IMG/VR virus record: IMGVR_UViG_3300044712_000823
Span: 1-64,000 of that record
Strand: one strand, 5' to 3'
From: a virus
Lineage: Duplodnaviria; Heunggongvirae; Uroviricota; Caudoviricetes
DNA length: 64,000 nt
Shown: one piece after another, positions 4,326-48,214 of the stretch
Numbering within the stretch: position 1 is the first letter of the stretch
Layout of the letters: every line of letters begins with the position of its first letter
Position numbers and translations under genes: made by a program
The notes under the pieces: generated by a model
The model's input: only the letters and a program-made list of their open reading frames with translations
The model's database searches: none
Told to the model about the DNA's origin: nothing

Positions 4326-5639
4326 ATGAATTTACTGGGACGAAAAACATCAGAAGTGATGGGAGAGAAAAGCGCCGGAATGTATTCCGGTGTTTCTGAT
4401 ATTGCGTCCAACATGATGAAATCTTTGAGCATTTCTGAAGAAACACTTTCTAAAATTTCCGAAAAATATCAAGACAATCTAAATGCTGAAGAAAAGTTAA
4501 AGACAAAACATCATAAAGAAATTCTTCGTGTCATTTTAGCTGCAACAAAAAAGAAAGCTAAAGGACAAAAACGAATAGAAGAAAACGTTGAAAAAGAGAA
4601 AAAAAGCCAGAAAGCAGAAACTAAAAAAACAGAAGCTAAAACAGAAGAAACTGCTAAGCCTGCTGAAGCACCACCTCCTCCTAAACCTGAGCCAGCACCT
4701 AAGCCTGAAGTTGCACCGAAACCGACACCTGCACCTAAACCTGAGCCTGCTCCTAAACCGACTGCAAAAAGAGTTGAGGAAGTTAAACCTACTCCGAGTT
4801 TAAAGCCTGAAGTTCCAAAGTCAGTAACAACTGCCACTAAAGTTTCAACAGGAGGACTCTTAGCTGCCGCTGCAATGTCAGTGAGAGGTGAAACTGGTGG
4901 CAAATCGTTAGATACTGTTAGTACAGATGCGAAAAAAGTCGGACAAGTTGTACAAAATGATCCGAAACCTGGCGTCAGTTCATATGGCATTTTTGGCTTG
5001 AATTCTGGAGGTTCTGTACAGAATTTTGTAAAAGATAATCCTCAATTTGGTCTATCTGAATTGCAACCTGCATCGAAACAGTTTGATGAAAGATGGAAAA
5101 ATCTAGCCATTGAAAAGACACAAGAATTTTATCAAGCACAAATTAATTGGTACAAAAAGTATGTATATGATCCAGTTAAAGCGGATATGCAGAAATTGTT
5201 ACCACAACATTTAGGTTCCGATGACGGTGTTGTGACCTATATGGCGGATAGACGTAATCAGATGGGTAAATTGTATGAGGGTGAAGCCATTACTTATGCA
5301 AAGAATTCAAATACACCAAAAGAATTCATTGCAAAAATTGCAGAACATGATTCAAGCGAGAGTTATATCAAGAAAGCTTTTCCAACATACTTGAAAACTC
5401 ATGGCGATAAGAATATACCAGGTTTACAGAATCGAGTTCGCATCCGCGAAGAAATGTCAATAAAAGTTTCAGGTGATTTAATAAGTGGTGTTTCAAACGA
5501 AAACACGAACATGAAAAAAGATTTGCAACAAAGTTCAGGTGCAACAGTTGTTATACAACAAAACAATAACACCACATTGAATAAGCAATCTATGATTATG
5601 CAAAACAAAAAACAAGAATTAAATCCAACGATGAGATAA
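4326..5639 (+). CDS. Proline-rich repeat structural/virion protein (PAPKPE repeats).
   Basis: Long ORF with tandem PxPKPE repeats at aa ~110–150. Conserved C-terminal domain (YGIFGLNSGGS). Confidence 0.35.
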   Translation: MNLLGRKTSEVMGEKSAGMYSGVSDIASNMMKSLSISEETLSKISEKYQDNLNAEEKLKTKHHKEILRVILAATKKKAKGQKRIEENVEKEKKSQKAETKKTEAKTEETAKPAEAPPPPKPEPAPKPEVAPKPTPAPKPEPAPKPTAKRVEEVKPTPSLKPEVPKSVTTATKVSTGGLLAAAAMSVRGETGGKSLDTVSTDAKKVGQVVQNDPKPGVSSYGIFGLNSGGSVQNFVKDNPQFGLSELQPASKQFDERWKNLAIEKTQEFYQAQINWYKKYVYDPVKADMQKLLPQHLGSDDGVVTYMADRRNQMGKLYEGEAITYAKNSNTPKEFIAKIAEHDSSESYIKKAFPTYLKTHGDKNIPGLQNRVRIREEMSIKVSGDLISGVSNENTNMKKDLQQSSGATVVIQQNNNTTLNKQSMIMQNKKQELNPTMR

Positions 5640-9617: not shown

Positions 9618-10175
9618 TTAGAAGAACTCTTTGTTTCTGTCAATTGTATCACCTTTTCTCTTGTAAAAAATATGTCGGCCAATTTTGTCAACTTTTTCCA
9701 TCTTCCAACCAGGATTAACATAGTCGGCGTGGTAGTAGGTTGCTCCATTGGTAACATCTTCCTGTTTATCGTGATTAATAACAATGTTTGTTGCTAGTTC
9801 ACGAATCTCATTATATAACTGACTGTCTTTGATTGTCAAGCGTCTATCGGTAAACTTTTTTTCACAATACCAGGAAAACTGGCACGTTCCGTTAGTTTTT
9901 TGATAAACAACATCGCAAATTGAATCGGCGTAATTTCCCGTCCGCACACGGTTAAGTGTTACAAATGCGACTGCTTTTTTACCTTCAAGCGGCTCATTTG
10001 CCGCCTCAAAATAAATGTTCTCCGCAAGGCACGTGACCTGCTTCTGTACATCTTTTGAGAGGGAATTAAAAGTTGTTTTGAATGGTAACATGGAGTCAAT
10101 ATTGAAATTAATCATACTGCCGCCTACCATAATTGCCGATAGAAGGATAGTCAGAAGTATTGGTTTACTTCTCAT
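9618..10175 (-). CDS. SleB-like cell-wall hydrolase with signal peptide.
   Basis: N-terminal signal peptide. Hydrolase_2 motifs (YFEA...AVAFVTLNRV). Confidence 0.55.
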   Translation of the reverse strand: MRSKPILLTILLSAIMVGGSMINFNIDSMLPFKTTFNSLSKDVQKQVTCLAENIYFEAANEPLEGKKAVAFVTLNRVRTGNYADSICDVVYQKTNGTCQFSWYCEKKFTDRRLTIKDSQLYNEIRELATNIVINHDKQEDVTNGATYYHADYVNPGWKMEKVDKIGRHIFYKRKGDTIDRNKEFF

Positions 10176-10364
10176 TTTTTCCTCTGTAGTTGAACAAGAT
10201 GATGGGTTATTCTGTTACGAGGAAACCCATCGAAACCCTAGTCAGCGTTTAGGCTGCCAATGCGAACTTTTCATCGTTTGCGTTTAGTTTGATTTACTTT
10301 TAACGACTATCTGTGTCGAGTTGTCCACTTCTGTACTTGTTGCCCTGTCGAAACCATGGCTGGC

Positions 10365-10478
10365 CCATCAGAAGTATACTAAACGTGGATCGTCCCTAAA
10401 TGCTTACTGAATTCTACAGTCAGCTTAGTATACTTCTGGTGGACCAGGCGGGAGTCGAACCCGCGTCCAGAACACTTT
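10365..10478 (-). ncRNA. tRNA-like 3' fragment (T-arm plus acceptor 3' half plus CCA) next to a 14-bp inverted repeat. Possible structured RNA.
   Basis: Minus-strand reading GCGGGUUCGACUCCCGCCUGGUCCACCA. No matching 5' acceptor strand. The inverted repeat is CAGAAGTATACTAA...TTAGTATACTTCTG. Confidence 0.25.
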
Positions 10479-10542
10479 TCTAGTTGCTTCATACAACCAT
10501 AGCCGCTAGTATAGCAGCTTTTTATTTAGTTGGCAAGCGTTT

Positions 10543-11685
10543 TTACCAGGGTTTTCCTGTACCGCGAAAATTACTGAAGCTTATTTGTCCGCTTGCTGGA
10601 ATCGTGATGTTTATTATCGCACTCTTCCTAACTTTACATGTATATCCTTGTGAGGACTGTGTAAGTACCTCAAAAGAATATGTTTCACCATTCACTGTGG
10701 TCGATGAGGGTGGTGGCACATTACCAGAAAGACTCAAGTTTGCAACTATATCACCGTTCCAAAAAACTTTTCCGAATGAGGTTCCTGGAGTCGTCAATGT
10801 ATCCCAGAACATACCATATGTCAACTTTCCCGATGCTGCTGATTGGAACTGGTCAATGGAACCCAACAATAAAGTGTTGGAAGAAACGGAAGATAAATTT
10901 GCAGGTAAGCTTATGGTTGAGGGTGTTACGAATGTGCCACCACGGTAATAACTGCTGACACTATATGGTTTTCCTGTATTACCGAAGATTGTCGCCAAAG
11001 TGTCTAGGTTTATTGTTGCATTATCGTCTATTCTATTTCTAAGCCAAATTATGGCCTCCATATAATTTCTAGAATCCGACGACGATTGATTGTACCTTTG
11101 TGGTAGAGGTGATTGAAGGTAATTTATTGAATAAAAATTTCCGTTTGATGAATTTGTGTAACGAGTGCCAAAGGAAGTCAGTGAGCGACTGATTGATCCT
11201 GTGTGTGAGAATACAAAAATTGAATTTGAATTTGAAAGTACAAAGTTATTTGCGGTCGAAGTCGTCGGCTCACCCATACTGAAAATAAACAAATCTCTAC
11301 ATTTCACTAATGTTTTATTTTCTATGAGACCATCTGTCGTAGAATAGACTGTAGGACACACTAATGATGCACCGGAAGGTGGAATTGCAGCTAATGCTAC
11401 AGCCGCATTGTCTGCATTGATTTGTCCAACATCTATACCTTTAGAAGCAACATTTATTAGTGTACCAACTGTTGTTCCCGGAGAACTCGGATCGAAACCG
11501 TTTGCAATCAATGCAATCGTTCCATTACCAGATGTGGTAATTATCGCACTTCTTGCATTGATAAATGTGTTCGATCTGACCAAAAAGTCACCAACAACAG
11601 TTATGTTTCCTGTTATAATAACGTCATTATTGGTTCTCAGATTGTAGTTGGTGTATGTTCCACCTGTTATGGTAGTTGTTGCCAT
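10543..11685 (-). CDS. Tail-fibre/adhesin-like protein (Ser/Thr/Asn-rich).
   Basis: Composition and repeats typical of receptor-binding fibre proteins. Confidence 0.4.
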   Translation of the reverse strand: MATTTITGGTYTNYNLRTNNDVIITGNITVVGDFLVRSNTFINARSAIITTSGNGTIALIANGFDPSSPGTTVGTLINVASKGIDVGQINADNAAVALAAIPPSGASLVCPTVYSTTDGLIENKTLVKCRDLFIFSMGEPTTSTANNFVLSNSNSIFVFSHTGSISRSLTSFGTRYTNSSNGNFYSINYLQSPLPQRYNQSSSDSRNYMEAIIWLRNRIDDNATINLDTLATIFGNTGKPYSVSSYYRGGTFVTPSTISLPANLSSVSSNTLLLGSIDQFQSAASGKLTYGMFWDTLTTPGTSFGKVFWNGDIVANLSLSGNVPPPSSTTVNGETYSFEVLTQSSQGYTCKVRKSAIINITIPASGQISFSNFRGTGKPW

Positions 11686-38570: not shown

Positions 38571-38777
38571 TTATTCAACTCCGAAATGTTCTTTTAGATG
38601 ACGTTCTTCAATAATACCAAAACTTTCTACGCCGCGCTGATGCAAATGCATTGCACATTCCTTGATAATCAATTCGGCAAATTCTTGTGGGTCGAAATAA
38701 GTATGCAATTTCAATACATGGAGTGTATTCCTATCTCCACCGGCTTTAAAGAATAGTTCATAAATTCGTTCATTCAT
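38571..38777 (-). CDS. Small paralogous-family protein.
   Basis: N-terminal 34 aa identical to 40961..41188. Confidence 0.5.
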   Translation of the reverse strand: MNERIYELFFKAGGDRNTLHVLKLHTYFDPQEFAELIIKECAMHLHQRGVESFGIIEERHLKEHFGVE

Positions 38778-38952
38778 TTGAATAATCCTTTACTGTGGGA
38801 ATATCTTTCCATTCAGACCATTGCATATTCTTCATAGTATCTGGAAATGGACCATTACCAGCATATACGTTCATATCAATTTGCTGCCTTTGTTGCAATA
38901 CCTTTTCAGGACCATCCCAACCTTGGCGGATAAACCAACGTAATTCAACCAT
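38770..38952 (-). CDS. Hypothetical small protein.
   Basis: ORF. Confidence 0.3.
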   Translation of the reverse strand: MVELRWFIRQGWDGPEKVLQQRQQIDMNVYAGNGPFPDTMKNMQWSEWKDIPTVKDYSNE

Positions 38953-39194
38953 TATTCAACTCCAAAATGTTCTTTGATCTTAACTGCAATGTCTGCCAAG
39001 TAGTAATATAACGTGCCTTCATCATGTAACTCACTGCCTTCGCTGTGTATATGAGCAATGTTAGCACATTCCTTGACAATCAACTCTGCAAACTTTTGCT
39101 CAAATGTGCGAATATATGAAACGCCGTGAGTTTCACATTCTTTATGTGCGTAGTTTTGCGCCTGTTCGGACAATTCTTTTATCCGTTCATTCAT
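38952..39194 (-). CDS. Small paralogous-family protein.
   Basis: FAELIVKEC...HFGVE. Confidence 0.5.
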   Translation of the reverse strand: MNERIKELSEQAQNYAHKECETHGVSYIRTFEQKFAELIVKECANIAHIHSEGSELHDEGTLYYYLADIAVKIKEHFGVE

Positions 39195-40645: not shown

Positions 40646-40681
40646 TTTCTTTTTCCAATCAATTACCGAACCAATAAAGAC

Positions 40682-40709
40682 AGTATAACAGAACCAGGGG
40701 AAATGGCAA
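40682..40709 (-). promoter_or_regulatory. Early promoter family copy P4 (TTGCCA-16-TATACT).
   Basis: Minus-strand reading TTGCCAtttcccctggttctgtTATACT. Confidence 0.5.
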
Positions 40710-40755
40710 TGTAGATCGGAAGTAGTCCATCCGTCCGGTCAAGTTCTCGGCAGGT

Positions 40756-40983
40756 TCATTCTTCAACTCCAAAATATGTGTATACTGCTTCTTCCATACT
40801 GGGACCAAATTGCATTCCTGCTCTTGCGACTATCAAAGTTTCTTTGATAATCAACTCGGCGAATTTACTTTCAAATGCTTGAATATATGAAACACCATAT
40901 TTGTCGTTTTGTTCATGTGCATAGTTTTGTGCATCATAAGAAAGTTTTTTAATTAGTTCTTCATTCATTTTCTTCAATTCCAA
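40756..40983 (-). CDS. Small paralogous-family protein.
   Basis: FAELIIKE...YFGVEE. Confidence 0.45.
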   Translation of the reverse strand: MELKKMNEELIKKLSYDAQNYAHEQNDKYGVSYIQAFESKFAELIIKETLIVARAGMQFGPSMEEAVYTYFGVEE

Positions 40984-41188
40984 ACTCTTTTTCCATACTC
41001 AAACAAACCTCACGGGCTTGATTTCGTGTCAGTTCCTTGTGGGGATATTTGTAAACAAAGTCGGAACATTCTTTGATAATCAAATTGGCGAATTCTTGTG
41101 GGTCGAAATAAGTATGCAATTTCAATACATGGAGTGTATTCCTATCTCCACCAGCCTTAAAGAATAGTTCATAAATTCGTTCATTCAT
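40961..41188 (-). CDS. Small paralogous-family protein.
   Basis: About 100 bp near-identical to 38680–38777. Confidence 0.5.
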   Translation of the reverse strand: MNERIYELFFKAGGDRNTLHVLKLHTYFDPQEFANLIIKECSDFVYKYPHKELTRNQAREVCLSMEKEFGIEENE

Positions 41189-41191
41189 TGT

Positions 41192-41728
41192 TTAAACTCC
41201 GATATACTTAGATGCTTCAGCATGAAGACCACGGTCGCCTTTTGTCATAACTTCGAGGAGAAGCCTTTTCTCGGCGAGATAAGTCTTGGCAAACCCAGGA
41301 TCATACTGCATAATAGATTTACTATTAGAGATAAGATCAGCAAGTTTAATTGTCTGAGCTTCAGCAGGTGCATCCGCAGTATGAGCACGATCAATTGCTT
41401 TACGGTGTGCCCTATTACCGTCTTCAGGGCGACTTACATCAGTGAGCCAACCAACAAGGCGAGCAATATCAATACCAAACGCCATATGAATATCATTAAA
41501 TGTGCAACCAGTATCTTCGACAACATCATGGAGCCATGCAGCAGCAACCATCTCATGCGTAGAACCAGGAACAGAAGCCACAATACTAGCCACCTCAGCA
41601 GGGTGAACAATATAAGATTCACCTGTATATTTACGCTTTTGACCGACAGCAGCATGAGCCGCCATTGCATATACTTGCGCCTTTTGTACAATATCCATAC
41701 CAGTAAGTTCCATTGTAAAGCATTGCAT
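41192..41728 (-). CDS. HD-domain (p)ppGpp hydrolase (SpoT/Mesh1-like small alarmone hydrolase). Start uncertain.
   Basis: YIVHPAEVA...AAWLHDVVEDTG matches the RelA/SpoT HD motif. Confidence 0.65.
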   Translation of the reverse strand: MQCFTMELTGMDIVQKAQVYAMAAHAAVGQKRKYTGESYIVHPAEVASIVASVPGSTHEMVAAAWLHDVVEDTGCTFNDIHMAFGIDIARLVGWLTDVSRPEDGNRAHRKAIDRAHTADAPAEAQTIKLADLISNSKSIMQYDPGFAKTYLAEKRLLLEVMTKGDRGLHAEASKYIGV

Positions 41729-41744
41729 GATTACTCCTTATTCC

Positions 41745-41957
41745 TTATTCCGTATTATCCGCAACAAAATCAATCTCGGTATGACTCAGAATCACCCGTT
41801 CCCGCATTGCACCAAATACCTCAATAGGGTTATCCAGAACTACGGTGTGTTTAATATCACCACCATATGCAATGCGAGACAATTCTACAGTACCAGACAC
41901 AATAAACCTGTTCAGATACTTACCACGAACAAACATATTTTCAAGAACCCAACTCAT
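41745..41957 (-). CDS. Small protein; paralog of 35643..35858.
   Basis: Paralogy. Confidence 0.45.
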   Translation of the reverse strand: MSWVLENMFVRGKYLNRFIVSGTVELSRIAYGGDIKHTVVLDNPIEVFGAMRERVILSHTEIDFVADNTE

Positions 41958-42109
41958 TCTATATCCTCCAGAGATTGAATTTGAATGTCCAATTCTTCAG
42001 AGGACATATTAACCAAATCAGCGATAAAACCAACAAATTGGTCATTATCACCAATGCCAATATGCATCATTTTATCAATAATATAAACAATCTTTTCCGC
42101 ACAATTCAT
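41954..42109 (-). CDS. Small protein (51 aa).
   Basis: Start reset downstream of the P5 transcription start. AGGAG-7-ATG. Confidence 0.35.
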   Translation of the reverse strand: MNCAEKIVYIIDKMMHIGIGDNDQFVGFIADLVNMSSEELDIQIQSLEDIE

Positions 42110-42134
42110 ACAAAATCTCCTAATCAATGAAGAC

Positions 42135-42163
42135 AGTATAACAGAACGTAAGGAGAATGGCAA
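42135..42163 (-). promoter_or_regulatory. Early promoter family copy P5 (TTGCCA-17-TATACT).
   Basis: Minus-strand reading TTGCCAttctccttacgttctgtTATACT. Confidence 0.5.
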
Positions 42164-42546
42164 TGTAGAGCAATAGTAGTCCATAGAAGAGGTCAACTAT
42201 TGTCCAGTGTATGGGAATGCATGGGGAAGAACCAGGAATGGAATAGGAGATGATTGAAACCAAAGGTAGTAACCAGTGTAGCAAGAACCATGCGTGGATT
42301 GAAAATGAAAGTGCTATTTATTGCGTGCCTACCGTGCGTTGTCGCGGGACCTGTCGCAGGTATGGTGTAGCACCTTAGTCTTAGTTGCTGTCTGCGAGCC
42401 AGGTTTTTCCTCAACCAGCCACTCTATCACAATCCACAGCGGTTGGCAATAGGTTTCCTCTCAGAACCTCAGAGAACCATAGAGCCAGGCTATAGCATAG
42501 TGGATTTCCGACCAATAGCAAAGTAAATTTTCTTTCACCCAGCTGG

Positions 42547-42576
42547 TTGCCAAACACCAGTGCCATGTGATATAAT
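42547..42576 (+). promoter_or_regulatory. Early promoter family copy P6 (TTGCCA-18-TGaTATAAT), plus strand. Points into an ORF-poor region.
   Basis: TTGCCAaacaccagtgccatgtgaTATAAT. Confidence 0.45.
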
Positions 42577-42682
42577 GGACCAAACGTCTTCCGCTGGCGG
42601 TAGTACCTTAGTGTTACACGGTATATAACGTGCAGCCTCCACGTCCATCCCCGTGTATTGCCGTTCGAATCATTGTAGTGGA

Positions 42683-42709
42683 TTATACCAGAACCGAACG
42701 GACTGGCAA
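42683..42709 (-). promoter_or_regulatory. Early promoter family copy P7 (TTGCCA-16-TATAAT), minus strand. Points into the ORF-poor region 42.2–42.65 kb.
   Basis: Minus-strand reading TTGCCAgtccgttcggttctggTATAAT. Confidence 0.5.
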
Positions 42710-42744
42710 GTAGAGCAAAAGTTCTCTACCTGCCAGGTGGGTCA

Positions 42745-42969
42745 TTAGTCTAGCAGGACCATGTACTCCGCTGGGAAGTGGGTGCGGAACCAGTCCAGAC
42801 CCTTGCGGACGGTCTTGTAGTCTCCGAACATCTCCGAGCCACGGATGGTGTCATACACTGCCACGGCGTCAGGAGGTAGGGTCACCGACTCACCAGAGAA
42901 GGGATTGGACACCAGCACCGGTGCATCGTCCAGGATTTTGCAGGGAAAGGGAAGGGTGCGAACGTTCAT
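42745..42969 (-). CDS. Hypothetical protein (GC-rich island).
   Basis: AGGAG RBS. GC-rich codon usage. Confidence 0.45.
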   Translation of the reverse strand: MNVRTLPFPCKILDDAPVLVSNPFSGESVTLPPDAVAVYDTIRGSEMFGDYKTVRKGLDWFRTHFPAEYMVLLD

Positions 42970-42980
42970 ATTTTACTCCT

Positions 42981-43508
42981 TTATTGAACCACGTTGAAAG
43001 GACCTTTGCGGTCATATTTTTTGGTGAAGAATGCCTCCACCTTGTCAGCGGTAGGACGGAATGCCTCAGCCTTGCCACCGTACCAGCCTTCGAAGCCACC
43101 ACGGTCAGGACGCGCCACGATGGTGAAGTCCTCATACTTGAGCTTGACCTTCTTGGGAGCCTTCGGTGCTTTGGGTGCCTTGGGCTCCTTGGCCACCTTT
43201 GCAGGCTTGGTTGTCGGTTTTGCCACCGAGGGCGTTTCCGGGACAGCCTGAGGTTGGACCTGACCTTTGAGGTGAGGCATGATGGCTTGGAGCCGCTCCA
43301 CGTTGGATTGTGCATACTTGACCAGGTCCTCACCGGTCAGCCCTTTGGACGTACCTTGTACAATGTAGTCGGCGAACAGGTGAGCCTCAGCCTTGTCCTT
43401 CGGTTTGACACCGACGGACTTTGCAATGCGGAAGTGGTCGGCAGGCTTCAGGGTTTTGAGGTACTTGACCAGCTGGTCGGCAGAGGTGAAGGTGGTTTGG
43501 ATTTCCAT
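42981..43508 (-). CDS. Hypothetical protein with KAPKAPKAPK linker.
   Basis: Start at MEIQ, downstream of the P8 transcription start. Lys/Ala/Pro-rich linker. Confidence 0.45.
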   Translation of the reverse strand: MEIQTTFTSADQLVKYLKTLKPADHFRIAKSVGVKPKDKAEAHLFADYIVQGTSKGLTGEDLVKYAQSNVERLQAIMPHLKGQVQPQAVPETPSVAKPTTKPAKVAKEPKAPKAPKAPKKVKLKYEDFTIVARPDRGGFEGWYGGKAEAFRPTADKVEAFFTKKYDRKGPFNVVQ

Positions 43509-43531
43509 GTGAGTTACTTTCGAATGAGTCA

Positions 43532-43560
43532 ATTATACCAGAATTTTCAAGCCGTGGCAA
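43532..43560 (-). promoter_or_regulatory. Early promoter family copy P8 (TTGCCA-17-TATAAT).
   Basis: Minus-strand reading TTGCCAcggcttgaaaattctggTATAAT. Confidence 0.5.
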
Positions 43561-44200
43561 CCGTCAGGCGGATAATTTTCGCCATCTTACGACCGTGGGC
43601 GGGGTAGCCGATGACCGCCACGGACTTATCGTAGCAGGTACGGCAGGTCAGGCACTTGCCACCTTGGTTGTATGCTGGGCAGACGGAAACACCACCGGGC
43701 GCGTTTTCCGCGTCGGGAATGATGGTAGAGCCATGCACGCCAGGCGTATAGGAACCATCCACGGCATCGGAAGAGAACCGAACCATTACATTGTCCAGCC
43801 GTTGCATGGCTGCAATGATGGGGGCAAACTTGGGGAATTTTGCCATGCGGGTGGGCAGCCAATGCTTGGTGTTGGGCGTACGGACCATCACCTGGTAGAT
43901 TTTGGTTGCCAATTCCAGGGAGTACATATCCCCCGAATCGAACCAACGGAAGTGGGTGTCCTTGCTCAATTGAGCCACCATGGCGTCAACCCAGCCGTCC
44001 TCTTGCCATGCGGCTTTATTGTCAGCACGGACAGCCTTGACGGCGCCGAAGTGGTACATGCCCGTGGTGGCGTAGCAACCAGAGCAGGCCGCAACCAGTT
44101 GGCCGTCCTTGCCAACCGAACCGGGGCAGGTCTCAATGGCTTGGAGGGACCAGGACTTGGTGCCTAGCTTGGAGGTCTTGGAGAGTTTGTTTTTCATCAT
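43547..44200 (-). CDS. Cys-rich metal-binding protein.
   Basis: Two Cys clusters (CPGS...CSGCY and CPAYNQGGKCLTCRTCY). Confidence 0.45.
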   Translation of the reverse strand: MMKNKLSKTSKLGTKSWSLQAIETCPGSVGKDGQLVAACSGCYATTGMYHFGAVKAVRADNKAAWQEDGWVDAMVAQLSKDTHFRWFDSGDMYSLELATKIYQVMVRTPNTKHWLPTRMAKFPKFAPIIAAMQRLDNVMVRFSSDAVDGSYTPGVHGSTIIPDAENAPGGVSVCPAYNQGGKCLTCRTCYDKSVAVIGYPAHGRKMAKIIRLTVATA

Positions 44201-44247
44201 GTGGTGTATTCTACAGGTTTCCTAGGTTCTGTCAACCAGTCCTTGGA

Positions 44248-44553
44248 TTAGTTGACCGGATTGGTGGGTTTCACCGTCACCGTCCAGCTGGAGAAGGAGA
44301 GACCGACCATGGTGTAACCATGGGCTGCCAGTGCCTTGATTAGGCGCTTGGCGATAATGTTAGCCATGGCGTTCTCCGCTTCGGTGCGGTTGATTGACGG
44401 CTCATGCAGGTGCATATCACCGGCATCCTCGCAGGTGAAAGGTACAACCAGCACCTCGCCCTGGTAGGCGTCCTTGTACGGCTTAGCCGCTTTGAAAAGA
44501 ATTGCGTTTTTCATGTGATGGAGTATACCACAACCGAAGGGAATGGCAACCAA
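44248..44553 (-). CDS. Hypothetical protein. May start at 44514 (MKNAILF).
   Basis: Two tandem upstream promoters (P9, P10). Confidence 0.4.
   Translation of the reverse strand: MVAIPFGCGILHHMKNAILFKAAKPYKDAYQGEVLVVPFTCEDAGDMHLHEPSINRTEAENAMANIIAKRLIKALAAHGYTMVGLSFSSWTVTVKPTNPVN
44522..44549 (-). promoter_or_regulatory. Early promoter family copy P9 (TTGCCA-16-TATACT).
   Basis: Minus-strand reading TTGCCAttcccttcggttgtggTATACT. Confidence 0.45.
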
Positions 44554-44648
44554 CCGATCATTGGAATTTCCTATTGATCCTGCGGACCCATAGTTGCGGT
44601 TCTAACGCCCAGCCTCCACGTCCATCCCAGTGCCTTTCGAATGGTCCT

Positions 44649-44676
44649 ATTATACCAGAACCGAGGACCCCGGCAA
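44649..44676 (-). promoter_or_regulatory. Early promoter family copy P10 (TTGCCG-16-TATAAT).
   Basis: Minus-strand reading TTGCCGgggtcctcggttctggTATAAT. Confidence 0.45.
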
Positions 44677-44716
44677 CCAATACCCTACCGCTCCGCTGGA
44701 GAACTATAGTTCTACA

Positions 44717-44744
44717 TTGCCATTTCCTCCGGTTCTGTCATAAT
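44717..44744 (+). promoter_or_regulatory. Early promoter family copy P11 (TTGCCA-16-CATAAT).
   Basis: TTGCCAtttcctccggttctgtCATAAT. ATG 8 nt downstream (leaderless). Confidence 0.5.
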
Positions 44745-44751
44745 CCACTCC

Positions 44752-44949
44752 ATGATGAATAGCAAAACAAAACCCTATACCGAATCCGTTGCAACCCGTC
44801 TCCCCGCTGGCCTGACCAGTGAAAAGGACCTGTGGACTGAAATCTACAAAATCGTGGAAGCCGACCTCGGCAAGAAAAGAGCATTCTACATGATGAACTA
44901 CAGTGAGGACTTCTTTCCTGATGTAATGCACGACTACAAATACCTGTAA
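44752..44949 (+). CDS. Small protein (65 aa); likely leaderless mRNA.
   Basis: Starts ~8 nt after the -10 of P11. Confidence 0.4.
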   Translation: MMNSKTKPYTESVATRLPAGLTSEKDLWTEIYKIVEADLGKKRAFYMMNYSEDFFPDVMHDYKYL

Positions 44950-44974
44950 ACTCTTGAAAACGAAAGGTTACAAA

Positions 44975-45187
44975 ATGAATCGCATTAGCCAAAATGGTTG
45001 GACTCTCCGCCGCTCCAACAACCAGCCGGTGCTGGTGAATCAGGCAGCCATAAGCTTCCGTGGTGACATAGCCACCATTGTGGGTGGACGCCCTCCTACC
45101 CACTTTGGTTCAACCGGTAGGGTCTGGACCAAGGCTGGTGGGGAATACTTCCCTTCGGTCTTTGACCTTGAGTGGGTGAAAGACTAA
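44975..45187 (+). CDS. Small protein (70 aa).
   Basis: AAAGG-8-ATG. The ORF track extends to a TTG at 44954. Confidence 0.4.
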   Translation: MNRISQNGWTLRRSNNQPVLVNQAAISFRGDIATIVGGRPPTHFGSTGRVWTKAGGEYFPSVFDLEWVKD

Positions 45188-45215
45188 CCAATCCGGTCAA
45201 CTATCCGACGGATGG

Positions 45216-45243
45216 TTGCCAAATCCTCCAGACCTGTCATAAT
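45216..45243 (+). promoter_or_regulatory. Early promoter family copy P13 (TTGCCA-16-CATAAT).
   Basis: GGTTGCCAaatcctccagacctgtCATAATCC. Almost identical to P14 and P15. Confidence 0.55.
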
Positions 45244-45281
45244 CCATTCCATAGTAAATCAACAAAGCAAAGGAAACAAAA

Positions 45282-45509
45282 ATGTCTCAAGGCTACAATG
45301 GCTGGACCAACCGCGAAACCTGGTTGGTTAACGTTTGGTTCAATCCGGAATCCCGTGAGGATGTGGAGGATGCACGGTCCATCCTGGAGGAACAATATGA
45401 TTCCATGACCGATGGTCCCCTGAAGGACATGGTTGCCCTGTCCGAGGTGGACTGGGACCAGCTGCTGGAACACTTCGAAGAGGAAGAGGATGAGGAGGAC
45501 GAGGAATGA
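45282..45509 (+). CDS. Small acidic protein with poly-Glu/Asp C-terminal tail. Candidate DNA-mimic-like early protein.
   Basis: NGWTNRETWLVNVW N-terminus. C-terminus EEEEDEEDEE. AAAGGAAAC RBS. Confidence 0.45.
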   Translation: MSQGYNGWTNRETWLVNVWFNPESREDVEDARSILEEQYDSMTDGPLKDMVALSEVDWDQLLEHFEEEEDEEDEE

Positions 45510-45718
45510 GCGTAGTCCGTAACCGGTTGCCCGGTTCAACCGGGTCCATAACCGAGCATTGGACCTCGGAATCACCGCAAGCCATCCAGGACCTGTTCCA
45601 GCAGGAGGTGACCAACTATCCTACAGGTGGTTATGGCACCATGCTCACCGGCATCCATGCCGATCCGACCGGTCTCCTATGGCATGCCAGGTTCTATCGC
45701 ATGGCATCTTGCGATTGA
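45506..45718 (+). CDS. Small protein (70 aa).
   Basis: ATGA overlap with the upstream gene. Confidence 0.4.
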   Translation: MSVVRNRLPGSTGSITEHWTSESPQAIQDLFQQEVTNYPTGGYGTMLTGIHADPTGLLWHARFYRMASCD

Positions 45719-45738
45719 AAATTCCAATGGCAACATTC

Positions 45739-45766
45739 TTGCCATTTCCTCCAGCCCTGTCATAAT
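45739..45766 (+). promoter_or_regulatory. Early promoter family copy P12.
   Basis: TTGCCAtttcctccagccctgtCATAAT. Confidence 0.5.
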
Positions 45767-45803
45767 CCATTCCATAGTAAATCAACCGCTGAAAGGAAAG
45801 CAG

Positions 45804-45998
45804 ATGAGTGTAATCGACAACCTGATTCTGGACATCCAGAAGGACATTACCGAAGGTCGCCTGACCTTCCGTGAAATCGCCGACCTGCGCGGCATCCCGT
45901 TTGACTGGGTGGATATGGTTGCTCTGGAGATGGCTCGCCAAGGTGAGGATGATCCGGAATACCTGGACTCTGACGCATACCTGGAGACGCTGGAATGA
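45804..45998 (+). CDS. Small acidic protein (64 aa).
   Basis: AAAGGAAAG RBS. The ORF track start at 45627 runs through promoter P12. Confidence 0.4.
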   Translation: MSVIDNLILDIQKDITEGRLTFREIADLRGIPFDWVDMVALEMARQGEDDPEYLDSDAYLETLE

Positions 45999-46156
45999 AC
46001 CGCTACACCTTGATCCTTTCCAACGGTCGGATCATGGTTTTCTCGGTGCTGGCCTGCGCTGAGGTCTTCCAGCAGGCCCACGGTGGAACGCTGGTAACCC
46101 AGCAAACCGGTCAAGAATCCAAGGAACAGTTGCCAAATCTTCCAGTCCTGTCATAA
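45995..46156 (+). CDS. Small hydrophobic protein (53 aa); reads through promoter P14.
   Basis: ATGA overlap. Hand-translated. Confidence 0.25.
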   Translation: MNRYTLILSNGRIMVFSVLACAEVFQQAHGGTLVTQQTGQESKEQLPNLPVLS

Positions 46157-46157
46157 T
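46130..46157 (+). promoter_or_regulatory. Early promoter family copy P14.
   Basis: TTGCCAaatcttccagtcctgtCATAAT. Confidence 0.5.
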
Positions 46158-46189
46158 CCATTCCATAGTAAATCACTGAGGACGACCAA

Positions 46190-46450
46190 ATGCTCAAAAT
46201 GATCTGGAATGACAAATCCCTCCTGACCATGACCGGCATCGCCGTGGCTCTGGTTGTGGCTGCCGTGGCTGCAACCATTTACAATGGCAACCAGTGGAAG
46301 GAATTCAGCCAGGAACATGAGTGCAAGGTGGTTGCCAAGCATGCCGGTACCACTGGCTATGGTATGACCAGCACCGGTAAGATGGGCATGGTCACCACTT
46401 CCGCAACCACTTCCTACCTTTGCAACGATGGTGTGACCTATACCCGTTAA
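46190..46450 (+). CDS. Small membrane protein (86 aa).
   Basis: One TM helix. RBS GAGGA. Confidence 0.45.
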   Translation: MLKMIWNDKSLLTMTGIAVALVVAAVAATIYNGNQWKEFSQEHECKVVAKHAGTTGYGMTSTGKMGMVTTSATTSYLCNDGVTYTR

Positions 46451-46481
46451 CCCAGACTTCCGGTCAACTATTCCCAGATGG

Positions 46482-46509
46482 TTGCCAAATCCTCCAGACC
46501 TGTCATAAT
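46482..46509 (+). promoter_or_regulatory. Early promoter family copy P15.
   Basis: TTGCCAaatcctccagacctgtCATAAT. Confidence 0.55.
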
Positions 46510-46546
46510 CCATTCCATGATGAAAAACGAAACGAAAGGAAACCAG

Positions 46547-46813
46547 ATGACTTACACCCCCGCCCAAGCGGCTGCCCTCCGTCACGCTGAAGTGACCCTG
46601 ACTCGCATGGCTCAGGAAGCCGCCCTCCGCTACGCCGAGGCTCTGGTCAAGTACCATGCCACCCGTCGCTTCGAAAAGTCTGAGGTGGCCTCTGAGCGCC
46701 AGATGGCACGGGATGCATGGACCATGGTCCTCATCACTGCTGAGGATGTGAACCAAGCCGCTGAGTGCCAGGCTCAGCTCACCGGCAACCAAATTGTGAA
46801 GGAGCTTGCATAA
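46547..46813 (+). CDS. Small alpha-helical protein (88 aa). Alternative leaderless start at 46517.
   Basis: AAAGGAAACCAG-ATG. Confidence 0.4.
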   Translation: MTYTPAQAAALRHAEVTLTRMAQEAALRYAEALVKYHATRRFEKSEVASERQMARDAWTMVLITAEDVNQAAECQAQLTGNQIVKELA

Positions 46814-46896
46814 TGAAAACTTTCGCAGTAGAACTGATCCAGGCAGCCATCCTGGCCACCCTTTTCTTCGGTCCCCTCTTCCTCTACATCCTCTGA
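46813..46896 (+). CDS. Hydrophobic micro-protein (27 aa).
   Basis: GAAGGAG-8-ATG. Single TM. Confidence 0.3.
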   Translation: MKTFAVELIQAAILATLFFGPLFLYIL

Positions 46897-46907
46897 AAGG
46901 TACTACC

Positions 46908-47117
46908 ATGGCAGCAACAGTCATTCCGGTTAAGGTCACGGACCGTAGGGTCCAGGAGCAATATGTGGTGGATGGTGCTCTGGTTACAATTTGCAAGCCA
47001 GCCAAGGCTCGGAAGTCGGAGAGGACTTGGAGAGGTGGCAGTAAGTGGTCAGTGGCTGGCTTGGGTGGTAAGGCACTGAGCCTGCGGAATGGCGGGCTGG
47101 CTAAGGCTAAAGGCTAA
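46908..47117 (+). CDS. Small basic protein (69 aa).
   Basis: GAAAGG-7-ATG. Confidence 0.4.
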   Translation: MAATVIPVKVTDRRVQEQYVVDGALVTICKPAKARKSERTWRGGSKWSVAGLGGKALSLRNGGLAKAKG

Positions 47118-47131
47118 GCCTAACACATTGG

Positions 47132-47160
47132 TACTAAAATTTGGACGGCAGTGTCCAAAA
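47132..47160 (-). terminator. Putative minus-strand terminator.
   Basis: UUGGAC-N6-GUCCAA hairpin followed by AUUUUAG. Confidence 0.35.
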
Positions 47161-47260
47161 ATTAAACCAATGTAAGTAATTTTCGCCTATGGCCCAAACT
47201 CGATTTTTCTGTTTTTTATTTTCTGGGGCCAAAACGCATTTTTCGAAATTTAGCACACCT

Positions 47261-47749
47261 CTAAATTTTTTCTCCGGACTCCAGCAGGTTTTCGAATTTT
47301 CCTGGAGGACTCTCCTGCGTATACTTTACATTGTTTAGCACGGGTCTGCCGTTCTCTGTCTTTCTGCACCACGGTATGTCTGTACGTACCACATAGGTCC
47401 ACTTATTGTAGTGCTGCATGAAGCTAATCATGTGCTGCGTACCTCTGGACTCTCCATCCCAAAATGCAATGAGTCCGTCTGCATAGACACCCATCTCTGC
47501 ATTCCGCATAGGACCCGCTTTCTTACCGTGGCGCTTCCAGTCGGCAGGAAAGAGCTTGACTGGAATGTTGCGCTCCTCTGCCCAACGTTCACCCAAGGAG
47601 TCAGCGCCTGCTGCACGGCCAGAAACAACCTCAGTAATGTGCAACCACGGTGGTATCGTTGCAAGGTAAGCCCTCAAATAATCATAATCATTAAAATCTC
47701 TGGATCCTGCAATGATTACTCTGCTCCGGCTGCTGCTTCTGCTGCTCAT
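47261..47749 (-). CDS. SLOG-superfamily (DprA/LOG-like) Rossmann nucleotide-binding protein.
   Basis: IIAGSRDF...VVSGRAAGAD...WDGESRGT motifs. Confidence 0.45.
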   Translation of the reverse strand: MSSRSSSRSRVIIAGSRDFNDYDYLRAYLATIPPWLHITEVVSGRAAGADSLGERWAEERNIPVKLFPADWKRHGKKAGPMRNAEMGVYADGLIAFWDGESRGTQHMISFMQHYNKWTYVVRTDIPWCRKTENGRPVLNNVKYTQESPPGKFENLLESGEKI

Positions 47750-47943
47750 TCTGGAATCATTCCCTGTGACTTAGCATAATAATAAATTGCGATACCGATG
47801 AGGTACAACACAACCTGCATCCAAAGACCGCGTGGGTTACCCCAGCTTCGGATGTTCCAAAGTACCCAAAGCATACCCAGTGCGAAACTGAATAGGTTTA
47901 GATGGAACGGGGAAATCGTCAGGAAATTCTCTAGTGTGTACAT
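47746..47943 (-). CDS. Small membrane protein.
   Basis: Two TM helices. Confidence 0.35.
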   Translation of the reverse strand: MYTLENFLTISPFHLNLFSFALGMLWVLWNIRSWGNPRGLWMQVVLYLIGIAIYYYAKSQGMIPE

Positions 47944-48034
47944 AGTCTCGGAGGCGCGGGGAGCGGGGAGTTCGCTCCGCTCAAAACTGTTAGTTAAGTT
48001 TCGCTAGTATAACACACAGGATGGAAAAGGCAAG

Positions 48035-48214
48035 TTACTTCTTGCGTTTCTTCGGTTTCTCTACGGATGCAATTGCTTCTCGGACTTCTTCTAGTAGCTT
48101 TTCGTCATCCCAGATAAGTTCTGTCTTACCGTTTTCGTGGGTAACTACGGTGAGGTGGTTACCCTTATTAATGATAGGATATTGTGCTGGTGCAGCTTTA
48201 GGTTTTTTGGGCAT
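48035..48214 (-). CDS. Small basic protein (59 aa).
   Basis: Start set at MPKKPK. Confidence 0.3.
   Translation of the reverse strand: MPKKPKAAPAQYPIINKGNHLTVVTHENGKTELIWDDEKLLEEVREAIASVEKPKKRKK

Follow-up and report, generated by a model that had tools for sequence, protein, structure and literature searches.

A conserved phage leader motif and convergent promoters in a gene-free gap of a large uncultivated phage, possibly joined to a decayed binding array

What fills a stretch of phage DNA in which no credible gene can be found? The question is raised by a gap in the window, the whole stretch of 64,000 nucleotides (nt) analysed here (IMG/VR virus record IMGVR_UViG_3300044712_000823, positions 1 to 64,000). 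A sequence-only reading had described a structured segment poor in open reading frames (ORFs) between inward-pointing promoters, and had proposed a non-coding RNA or a micro-peptide locus. The ORF-poor segment was confirmed as a 635-bp gap (42110-42744) without credible gene between a gene of 51 amino acids (aa; 41954-42109, minus) and a 74-aa gene (42745-42969, minus). In a public contig 100% identical to the window the same stretch was left empty by the gene caller. The gap is a real conserved non-coding locus and no micro-peptide gene, intron remnant or large structured RNA. A conserved phage-restricted leader with a covarying hairpin, a clade-conserved convergent promoter and a second conserved module were shown for it. 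Tentatively, and with a little less than even confidence, the gap is read as a patchwork of two separable conserved modules in a variable early-gene region of a large uncultivated phage.

Both promoters of the sequence-only reading are present. P7 (42709..42682, minus) has the form TTGCCA-N16-TGgTATAAT and P6 (42547..42576, plus), convergent with P7, the form TTGCCA-N18-TGaTATAAT. Each agrees with the consensus at 11 of 12 positions. The calls are based on consensus match only, and transcription is predicted to start near 42676-42673 for P7 and near 42582-42584 for P6. The pattern TTGCCA-N15-18-TATAAT occurs three times in the 64 kb compared with 0.06 expected occurrences, and 15 promoter-like sites were counted between 41000 and 45000 (5.7 expected). 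P7 is paralogous to the promoters 44676..44649 and 43560..43532. It is kept in L310, L311 and L099, L-numbers denoting the related loci and contigs fetched for comparison (310 loci, 2.75 Mb). The -35 hexamer of P7 lies in the 3' arm of a terminator-like stem-loop located 3' of the 74-aa gene (42703..42736, minus; arms 42703-42715 and 42724-42736), and a composite of stem-loop and promoter results. The stem has 13 bp with one G-U pair, the loop 8 nt. With -22.6 kcal/mol (z = -5.28), a stability reached by none of 200 shuffles, this is the only exceptional fold of the segment.

Directly 3' of P7 a leader of about 54 nt was identified (42620..42673, minus). It is composed of UUCGAA, a small covarying hairpin and then GGGAUGGACGUGGAGGCUG; the arrangement in the window is AUGA-UUCGAA-P2-GGGGAUGGACGUGGAGGCUGCACG-UUAUAUACC, where hairpin P2 contains the pairs C42663-G42652 and G42662-C42653. 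The single-stranded parts UUCGAA and GGGAUGGACG..GAGG..UG around the hairpin are conserved, the flanks being kept as sequence (UUCGAA and GGG(A/G)UGGACG..GAGG..UG). No supported pairing was found in the leader beyond P2. In an alignment of the window promoters, P7 and the promoter 44676..44649 share the first about 50 transcribed bases, ending in GGGATGGACGTGGAGGCTG, and the paralogy between the regions behind them extends down to GGAGGCUG.

An 18-mer of the leader matched eight viral contigs. Each of them carries an upstream sigma-70-like promoter, (A/G)TTCGAA and a short hairpin, all outside the query, and the hairpin stems vary (GGA..UCC, GGG..CCC, GAG..CUC, CAG..CUG). By a degenerate scan with filtering, 56 distinct leader copies were obtained from diverse viral contigs, in every case directly behind a sigma-70-like promoter; tandem copies occur in L104. 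When 185,579 species genomes of bacteria and archaea were scanned with a 19-mer, five chance matches in coding DNA and one true-looking copy were obtained. Due to this near-absence, the leader motif is regarded as a phage feature and not as the copy of a host RNA. In the sole true-looking copy (L304, contig JBDNIA010000195.1 of a Crocinitomicaceae metagenome-assembled genome, about 5216-5260, minus) GUCGAU replaces UUCGAA, and the hairpin is of the form GGA..UCC. L304 is probably a phage contig binned with the bacterial genome. With Rfam no family was detected for the motif, neither in the window region 41900-43100 nor in 20 motif-carrying loci, in which only tRNAs were found. Apparently, the short leader motif is a new element, absent from Rfam.

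The hairpin was examined for covariation. In a MAFFT alignment of 39 copies both closing pairs are Watson-Crick pairs in every sequence, with three (C-G/A-U/G-C) and four pair types (A-U/G-C/U-A/C-G) and no unpaired cell, and these two pairs are the top two column pairs by mutual information. P2 is paired in 98-100% of the cells. None of 500 shuffles reached the observed covariation, and slid registers collapsed. A compensatory change from C-G to A-U in the hairpin was found for L310 in comparison with the window. Since the 39 copies had been chosen partly by required pairing, a covariance model was built and loci fetched by other criteria were searched. The 16 model matches in these independently fetched loci were 100% paired and included 15 double changes; the alignment of the model-found copies is fitted to the model's own structure, so the selection caveat is reduced, not removed.

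With the covariance model R1 the window copy (42673-42620) reached 55.1 bits (E = 1.7e-8) and a second window copy (44645-44597, minus), behind the promoter 44676..44649, 52.9 bits. Both copies belong to the model seed, and their scores thus hold by construction. No third leader copy was found in the window with this model. About 75 nt beyond the second copy lies the next promoter (44549..44522), which drives a 90-aa gene, and the AUG of this copy opens an ORF of seven codons only, MDVEAGR.

In contrast to the leader hairpin, the 'structured' character ascribed to the whole segment was not found. Relative to shuffles, the fold of 42164-42676 (513 nt) gave z = -0.14 for the minus and -1.06 for the plus strand, and sub-window folds gave z = -1.44, -1.92, 0.06 and 0.47. 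RNAalifold detected no net covariation (term +0.96) for the homologous 270-nt region of five relatives. The whole window was searched at gathering score against Rfam 15, including group I and II introns, riboswitches, small RNAs and CRISPR repeats, and nothing was obtained in the gap. At E <= 10 the best hits in 41900-43100 were at chance level: CRISPR-DR15 with 21 bits versus a gathering score of 36 (E = 0.23) and the family P10 (E = 4.8). No tRNA or tRNA-like gene was found in the region by ARAGORN. The suggested structured or intron-derived RNA is thus not supported. Of two inverted repeats named for the segment, gtgcgttgtcgcgggacctgtcgcaggt is actually a direct repeat, TGTCGC-N6-TGTCGC (42340-42357), conserved in relatives, and ccgctggcgg forms a 3-bp hairpin at most.

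Further readings of the motif were rejected. AUGGUUCGAAC resembles the D-loop region of transfer-messenger RNA (tmRNA), but an acceptor stem is missing and host genomes do not contain the motif. An intrinsic terminator or attenuator (GGACG..CGUC with U run) fits few copies only. A T-rich window follows the motif in 12 of the 56 copies, and no terminator-like site was detected in the 64 kb.

The second promoter, P6, would produce an RNA opposite to the leader. From the promoter positions an overlap of sense and antisense transcripts of about 93 nt is predicted (42583..42675), which covers the whole leader. In L099 a P6-like convergent promoter, TTGCCA-N17-TGATATAAT, is located about 55 nt after the leader. 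Two contigs, L310 and L311, were returned by a metagenome scan for the leader, a gap and ATTATATCA. Each of them has the complete cassette of promoter, leader, spacer and antisense promoter behind a gp88 homologue, and this homologue is 76-82% identical to the one in the window. For the segment 42709-42543, comparison with L310, L311 and L099 gave 74-77% identity over 168 nt. The -35 block of P6, TTGGCAACCAG, is invariant and the -10 element is also conserved in L310, L311 and L099; the spacer block GCGGAARACGTTTGG is conserved in L310 and L311. The -10 element was part of the scan pattern by which L310 and L311 were found, the -35 block and the spacer block were not. Thus, from the earlier idea of a non-coding RNA or antisense transcript, the leader motif with its compensatory hairpin and the conserved P6 are retained, and the large structured RNA is not.

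Could the gap instead encode a small protein? The proposed Cys-rich peptide of 41 aa exists as an ORF of 42 aa (MIETKGSNQC..., 42250..42378, plus), but it is not supported as a gene. AGGAG abuts its ATG without spacer, the part of the gap upstream of it contains no promoter-like site on the plus strand, and no tblastn match was obtained at E <= 1 in the 310 loci. Moreover, the ORF overlaps, in antisense orientation, the conserved boxes ACTAAGAC and GCGACA described below. For eight of the ten small ORFs of the gap, including this one, no tblastn match was better than E = 0.054 in the related DNA. A 37-aa ORF (MDVEAARY..., 42535..42648, minus) starts inside the leader and is considered a by-product, not a gene. 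It has no spaced ribosome-binding site, because GGGG abuts the ATG, and its similarity to L310 and L311 is confined to the conserved DNA of the P6 promoter. In L310 the ORF from the leader AUG is only 11 codons long, and the stretch of similarity is read in a different frame; across the leader copies the ORF from this start varies from 6 to more than 60 codons. A 31-aa plus-strand ORF (42653-42748) matches L311 (E = 6e-5) and L297 (E = 6e-4) because of its overlap with conserved leader and P7 DNA. One or several micro-peptide genes, namely the 42-aa, the 37-aa or a 38-aa ORF starting with TTG at 42254, are therefore very improbable. These ORFs do exist, and the 38-aa ORF begins 5 nt past AGGAG and has a hydrophobic stretch at its end. 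Against this, the plus-strand ORFs have no upstream promoter-like site and lie antisense to the conserved boxes, and the gene caller left the region empty. There is no conserved coding frame in the gap.

The second conserved module became visible in the relatives. In 11 related loci the motif is followed by 500-1500 nt that contain no ORF preceded by a ribosome-binding site. These ORF-free loci share boxes in a fixed order: a GGA-rich stretch, CA-ACTAAGAC and two GCGACA repeats 5-6 nt apart. The same module was detected in more than 12 further contigs by a scan for ACTAAG..GCGACA..GCGACA. In the window the conserved box ACTAAGAC is located at 42378..42385 (minus, context CAGCAACTAAGACTAAGG) and the direct repeat GCGACA-N6-GCGACA, as its sole copy, at 42340..42357 (minus). 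The box occurs in the same order in L169, L213, L250, L289, L297, L277, L224, L225, L231, L254, L288 and L264, and in all of these the GCGACA repeat is kept 20-45 nt after the ACTAAG box. The block UGGUUCUCUGAGGUUCUGAGAGGAAACC (42452..42479, minus), part of the GGA-rich stretch, resembles by eye GGTACTCTGAGGCTCGCTGAGAA in L213 and L297. A weak promoter-like site (42421..42449, minus; TTGCCA-N17-TAGAGT, 9/12) is located in a segment of about 45 nt which, in a comparison by eye, is missing from relatives of the L169/L297 type.

In the last 100 nt before the ACTAAG box, GGA was counted 63 times and TCC four times in 17 loci, and 29 of the 48 intervals between consecutive GGAs measure 9-11 nt in the relatives. 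This spacing corresponds to helical phasing and suggests a binding array at the level of DNA. The strand bias, together with GGAUGGACGUGGAGG in the motif itself, could also be expected from a small RNA that acts in trans, either singly or paired with its antisense RNA, for example as decoy or sponge for a defence system or for a host RNA-binding protein with GGA specificity. The motif stands directly at a strong promoter in several copies per genome, and in L104 and L101 a hairpin with U run follows within about 60-110 nt, which would give a discrete small RNA. However, no terminator-like site follows the window copy, the T-rich window mentioned above is limited to the minority of copies, and a 10-nt phasing of GGA is a property of duplex DNA and not of RNA loops. 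A small RNA of this kind is considered quite improbable. The reading of the GGA repeats as a CsrA-type sponge was weakened by the same phasing.

In L310 and L311 the promoter-leader cassette, hereafter module A, directly precedes the next promoter and gene, and no array adjoins it. The array, module B, is found in L311 about 550 nt beyond module A, past two small genes. Thus, the gap of the window represents a juxtaposition of two separable modules. Leftwards it consists of module A, module B, about 150 nt without detectable relative (no homologue was detectable for 42165-42320) and a second cassette of stem-loop and promoter.

From these data we propose an early leader that is not translated and is opposed by an antisense RNA, joined to the decayed remains of a DNA-level binding array, an explanation to which we give somewhat less than an even chance. 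In module A (42736-42543) the terminator-like stem-loop is fused to the strong promoter P7, which would start an untranslated RNA with the phage-specific leader, and P6 would make an RNA complementary to the whole leader. Module B (about 42480-42320) is a degenerate copy of the array of GGA repeats, ACTAAGAC box and two GCGACA repeats. The leader may be a cis-acting promoter-proximal element that is read by a protein or by RNA polymerase, with read-through, processing or stability as candidate roles, and it would ride on transcripts running on towards the genes for the 51-aa protein, a 70-aa protein and an HD hydrolase. P6 might damp the leader by antisense pairing or by transcriptional collision. 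The firing of P7 and P6, the cis action of the leader on early transcripts and the opposition by P6 are inferred from sequence.

Several points weigh against this explanation. The copies used for covariation were partly selected for pairing and the model-found set was aligned to the structure of the model; base-pair support concerns 2-4 pairs only, and the conserved flanks of the leader could equally be read as DNA. A convergent promoter lies within 200 nt in only 9 of 55 leader copies, so that antisense control would be clade-specific and limited to a subset. The segment 41000-45000 yielded no site resembling an intrinsic terminator. In the window, module B is degenerate, with GGA spacings of 23 and 25 nt versus 9-11 nt in the relatives, and part of the gap may be decaying. 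Finally, DnaA boxes, defined as TTATCCACA with at most one mismatch, are enriched downstream of the leader in other phages: their density is 2.17 per kb over 600 nt there, compared with 0.16 upstream and 0.30 in all fetched DNA. This enrichment points to a replication- or DnaA-linked role, which is not needed by the leader explanation.

The main rival takes up this observation. It assumes a transcription-primed or transcription-activated replication origin, at which the G-rich start of the P7 transcript (GGGGAUGGACGUGGAGG) would form a persistent RNA-DNA hybrid or open the array; the antisense RNA from P6 would limit initiation, in a topology analogous to RNA I and RNA II of ColE1. Downstream of the motif 67 DnaA boxes were counted in 30.9 kb versus five in 32 kb upstream, and at least two boxes are present downstream of 14 of 53 copies versus upstream of none of 53. 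The enrichment was observed in two unrelated phage groups. In the sister loci L169, L213, L250, L297, L010 and L264 the ACTAAG/GCGACA module is directly followed by 2-6 DnaA boxes, and the regular GGA spacing is iteron-like. The long ORF-free DNA past the motif would also suit an origin. In contrast, no DnaA box with at most one mismatch is present in 42110-42745 of the window, boxes with two mismatches occur at background rate, and the iteron phasing is lost. The gap contains no A+T-rich unwinding stretch, and its G+C content (47-51%) is above that of the genome (about 38%). Furthermore, at least two leader copies occur within 2 kb here in addition to the tandem copies of L104, a same-sense promoter was found within 200 nt in 18 of 55 copies, and the cassette of L310 and L311 has no adjoining array. 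An origin at this locus is rated as rather unlikely. Copies of AATCCAC (4 of the 11 in the window lie in 42294-42684) were tried as weak DnaA boxes and rejected: two of them belong to the -10/+1 regions of promoters, and when up to two mismatches to the DnaA consensus are allowed the number of boxes is at background.

Related leader forms were observed in other contigs. A long form, represented among the 56 copies, occurs in unrelated phage contigs (L102, L113, L140, L142, L144, L175, L198, L202 and L203; for example L140 7780-7890). It has the 5' extension CAUAAUAAGAAAACGGGUAGACCG, a 3' GGUUCU and a covarying hairpin GUUAG-UAAGCG-CUAAC. A small GIY-YIG gene is oriented divergently from the long form, and the 1-2 kb behind the long form are poor in ORFs and contain repeated GGTTGACA or DnaA boxes. 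The GIY-YIG neighbour (13 of 52 loci, long form) represents lineage-specific synteny and provided no functional lead. A 'type 2' leader, CCAUAGCA-hairpin-GGCUCUAAUCC-GNCCCUGC, was found in L010 (1925-1985), L011 (6236-6310 and 6840-6915) and L015 (6240-6315), directly 3' of promoters of the form TTGCCA..TGTAGAAT/TGTATAAT. In L010 it takes the place of the type 1 leader before an ACTAAG/GCGACT module and six DnaA-like boxes. The 'GSNPP' translation in L011 and L015, which had been considered as a T-arm, corresponds to GGCUCUAAUCC of the type 2 leader; ARAGORN detected no tRNA in 12 related loci.

The position of the gap suits a further explanation, according to which it would be debris of a mosaic junction: a recombination remnant between promoter cassettes at the edge of a G+C island, with working promoters and functionless DNA between them. 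The gap forms the left edge of an island (about 42200-48100) with 50-60% G+C and sits exactly where G+C climbs from about 33-40% to this level. The neighbourhoods of the flanking genes are mosaic in the relatives. Cassettes of stem-loop and promoter stand at both ends of the gap, like the shuffling promoter-early stem-loops (PeSLs) of other phages (PMC2839356, PMC4122927). The left one (42135..42202, minus) combines a stem-loop (42171-42202) with the promoter TTGCCA-N17-TATACT (42163..42135), which drives the 51-aa gene. It shares 82% identity over 66 nt with the cassette at 40666-40730; paralogous cassettes are also present at 44519-44549, 44603-44664 and 44699-44769. The degenerate module B and the 42165-42320 segment would likewise fit a remnant. 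However, the leader is kept beyond what is expected of a scar, with 56 copies in very different phages and compensatory changes. L310 and L311 have retained both P6 and the spacer block, and more than 12 loci have the ACTAAGAC and GCGACA boxes in the same order and at the same spacing. Debris is therefore judged an unlikely explanation of the gap.

The island itself was probably acquired from G+C-richer phages, for example those of L011-L015. It holds a gene of the GP88 family (43547-44200, minus) and a gene with YspA/SLOG domain (47261-47749, minus), besides many small ORFs and divergent promoters. In the window phage rIIA, a CobS-like gene and the genes for a primase and for the large subunit of ribonucleotide reductase (NrdA) were recognised. 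Close relatives are lacking among cultured phages: with 41000-44500 as query, blastn found no DNA match in 50,697 phage records, and the best cultured match of rIIA is below 60% identity and partial (at most 46% over part of its length). In IMG/VR the relatives are represented by contigs that reach 160-230 kb. Blastn and tblastx of the gap against 96 loci with homologues of the flanking genes gave promoter pieces only, and scans with the 51-aa and a 176-aa neighbour protein found no relatives.

Some observations concern other parts of the window. A permuted (two-piece) tmRNA gene was found at 10158-10550 (minus; Rfam beta_tmRNA 136 bits, tmRNA_permuted 127 bits), with the tag peptide ANDEKFALAA according to ARAGORN. 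It hints at a betaproteobacterial host. A small paralogous gene family with the pattern M(N)ERIKEL.EQA..YAH....FAELI(V/I)KE.. is located in a variable region at 38952-39194, 40756-40983 and 40961-41188 (minus), and homologues are scattered in the related loci L008, L009 and L029. The ends of the identical Logan contig L001 coincide exactly with two short intragenomic repeats, 45192-45240 versus 46459-46506 (49 nt, 92%) and 41160-41189 versus 38749-38778 (30 nt, 100%). Probably, the assembly of L001 was broken by these repeats.

In general, stretches annotated as empty in large uncultivated phages can consist of recurrent conserved non-coding modules. The leader motif is short, easily searched, phage-restricted and statistically tied to DnaA-box clusters, and it offers a handle on early-transcript control and on replication start sites in such phages. 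With low confidence, the leader (UUCGAA-hairpin-GGGRUGGACG..GAGG..UG) might even be an undescribed phage-specific RNA element that marks transcription-dependent origins or DnaA loci, accompanied by a clade-specific ColE1-like cis-antisense circuit in a large lytic phage. If it is only a stabilising or processing signal, the leader would still be useful as a marker of early promoters in metagenomic phage genomes.

Several known systems resemble parts of the locus. Promoter-plus-origin logic is realised in oriF and oriG of T4 and in the primary origin of T7, iteron and DnaA-box origins in plasmids and temperate phages. The relatives of the window share with such origins a strong promoter, repeats phased by 10 bp, direct repeats, DnaA clusters and ORF-free DNA. 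The window copy differs by the lack of DnaA boxes, phased iterons and an A+T-rich stretch, and leader copies are multiple, even tandem. RNA I and RNA II of ColE1 form a cis-antisense control pair. Here, too, convergent promoters lie about 90 nt apart, and the short predicted antisense RNA could pair with the longer sense RNA at its 5' end; unlike in ColE1, no kissing-loop hairpins are evident, and the antisense promoter is restricted to the few motif copies given above. As with nut of lambda (boxA and boxB) and put of HK022, a short element with linear sequence and a small hairpin follows strong early promoters in several copies. The loop of lambda boxB is conserved. Here the hairpin loop is not, no sequence similarity to nut or put exists, and no N-like or Nus-dependent factor was identified for the leader. 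The likenesses to ColE1, nut/put and iteron origins are functional analogies, not memberships.

In T4-type phages shuffling is mediated by PeSLs, cassettes that consist of a stem-loop and a promoter only (Arbiol et al. 2010, PMC2839356; Comeau et al. 2014, PMC4122927). In contrast to these, the locus described here has a conserved transcribed leader and a clade-conserved convergent promoter, and membership of the T4 group is not established by the distant, partial rIIA match. In agreement with PeSLs, the stem-loop is fused to a near-consensus early promoter of sigma-70 type (42703-42736 with P7; 42171-42202 with 42163..42135), copies are located between small ORFs of a variable region (42736-42682, 42202-42135, 40730-40666, 44676.. 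and 44549..), and the cassettes stand at a mosaic boundary.

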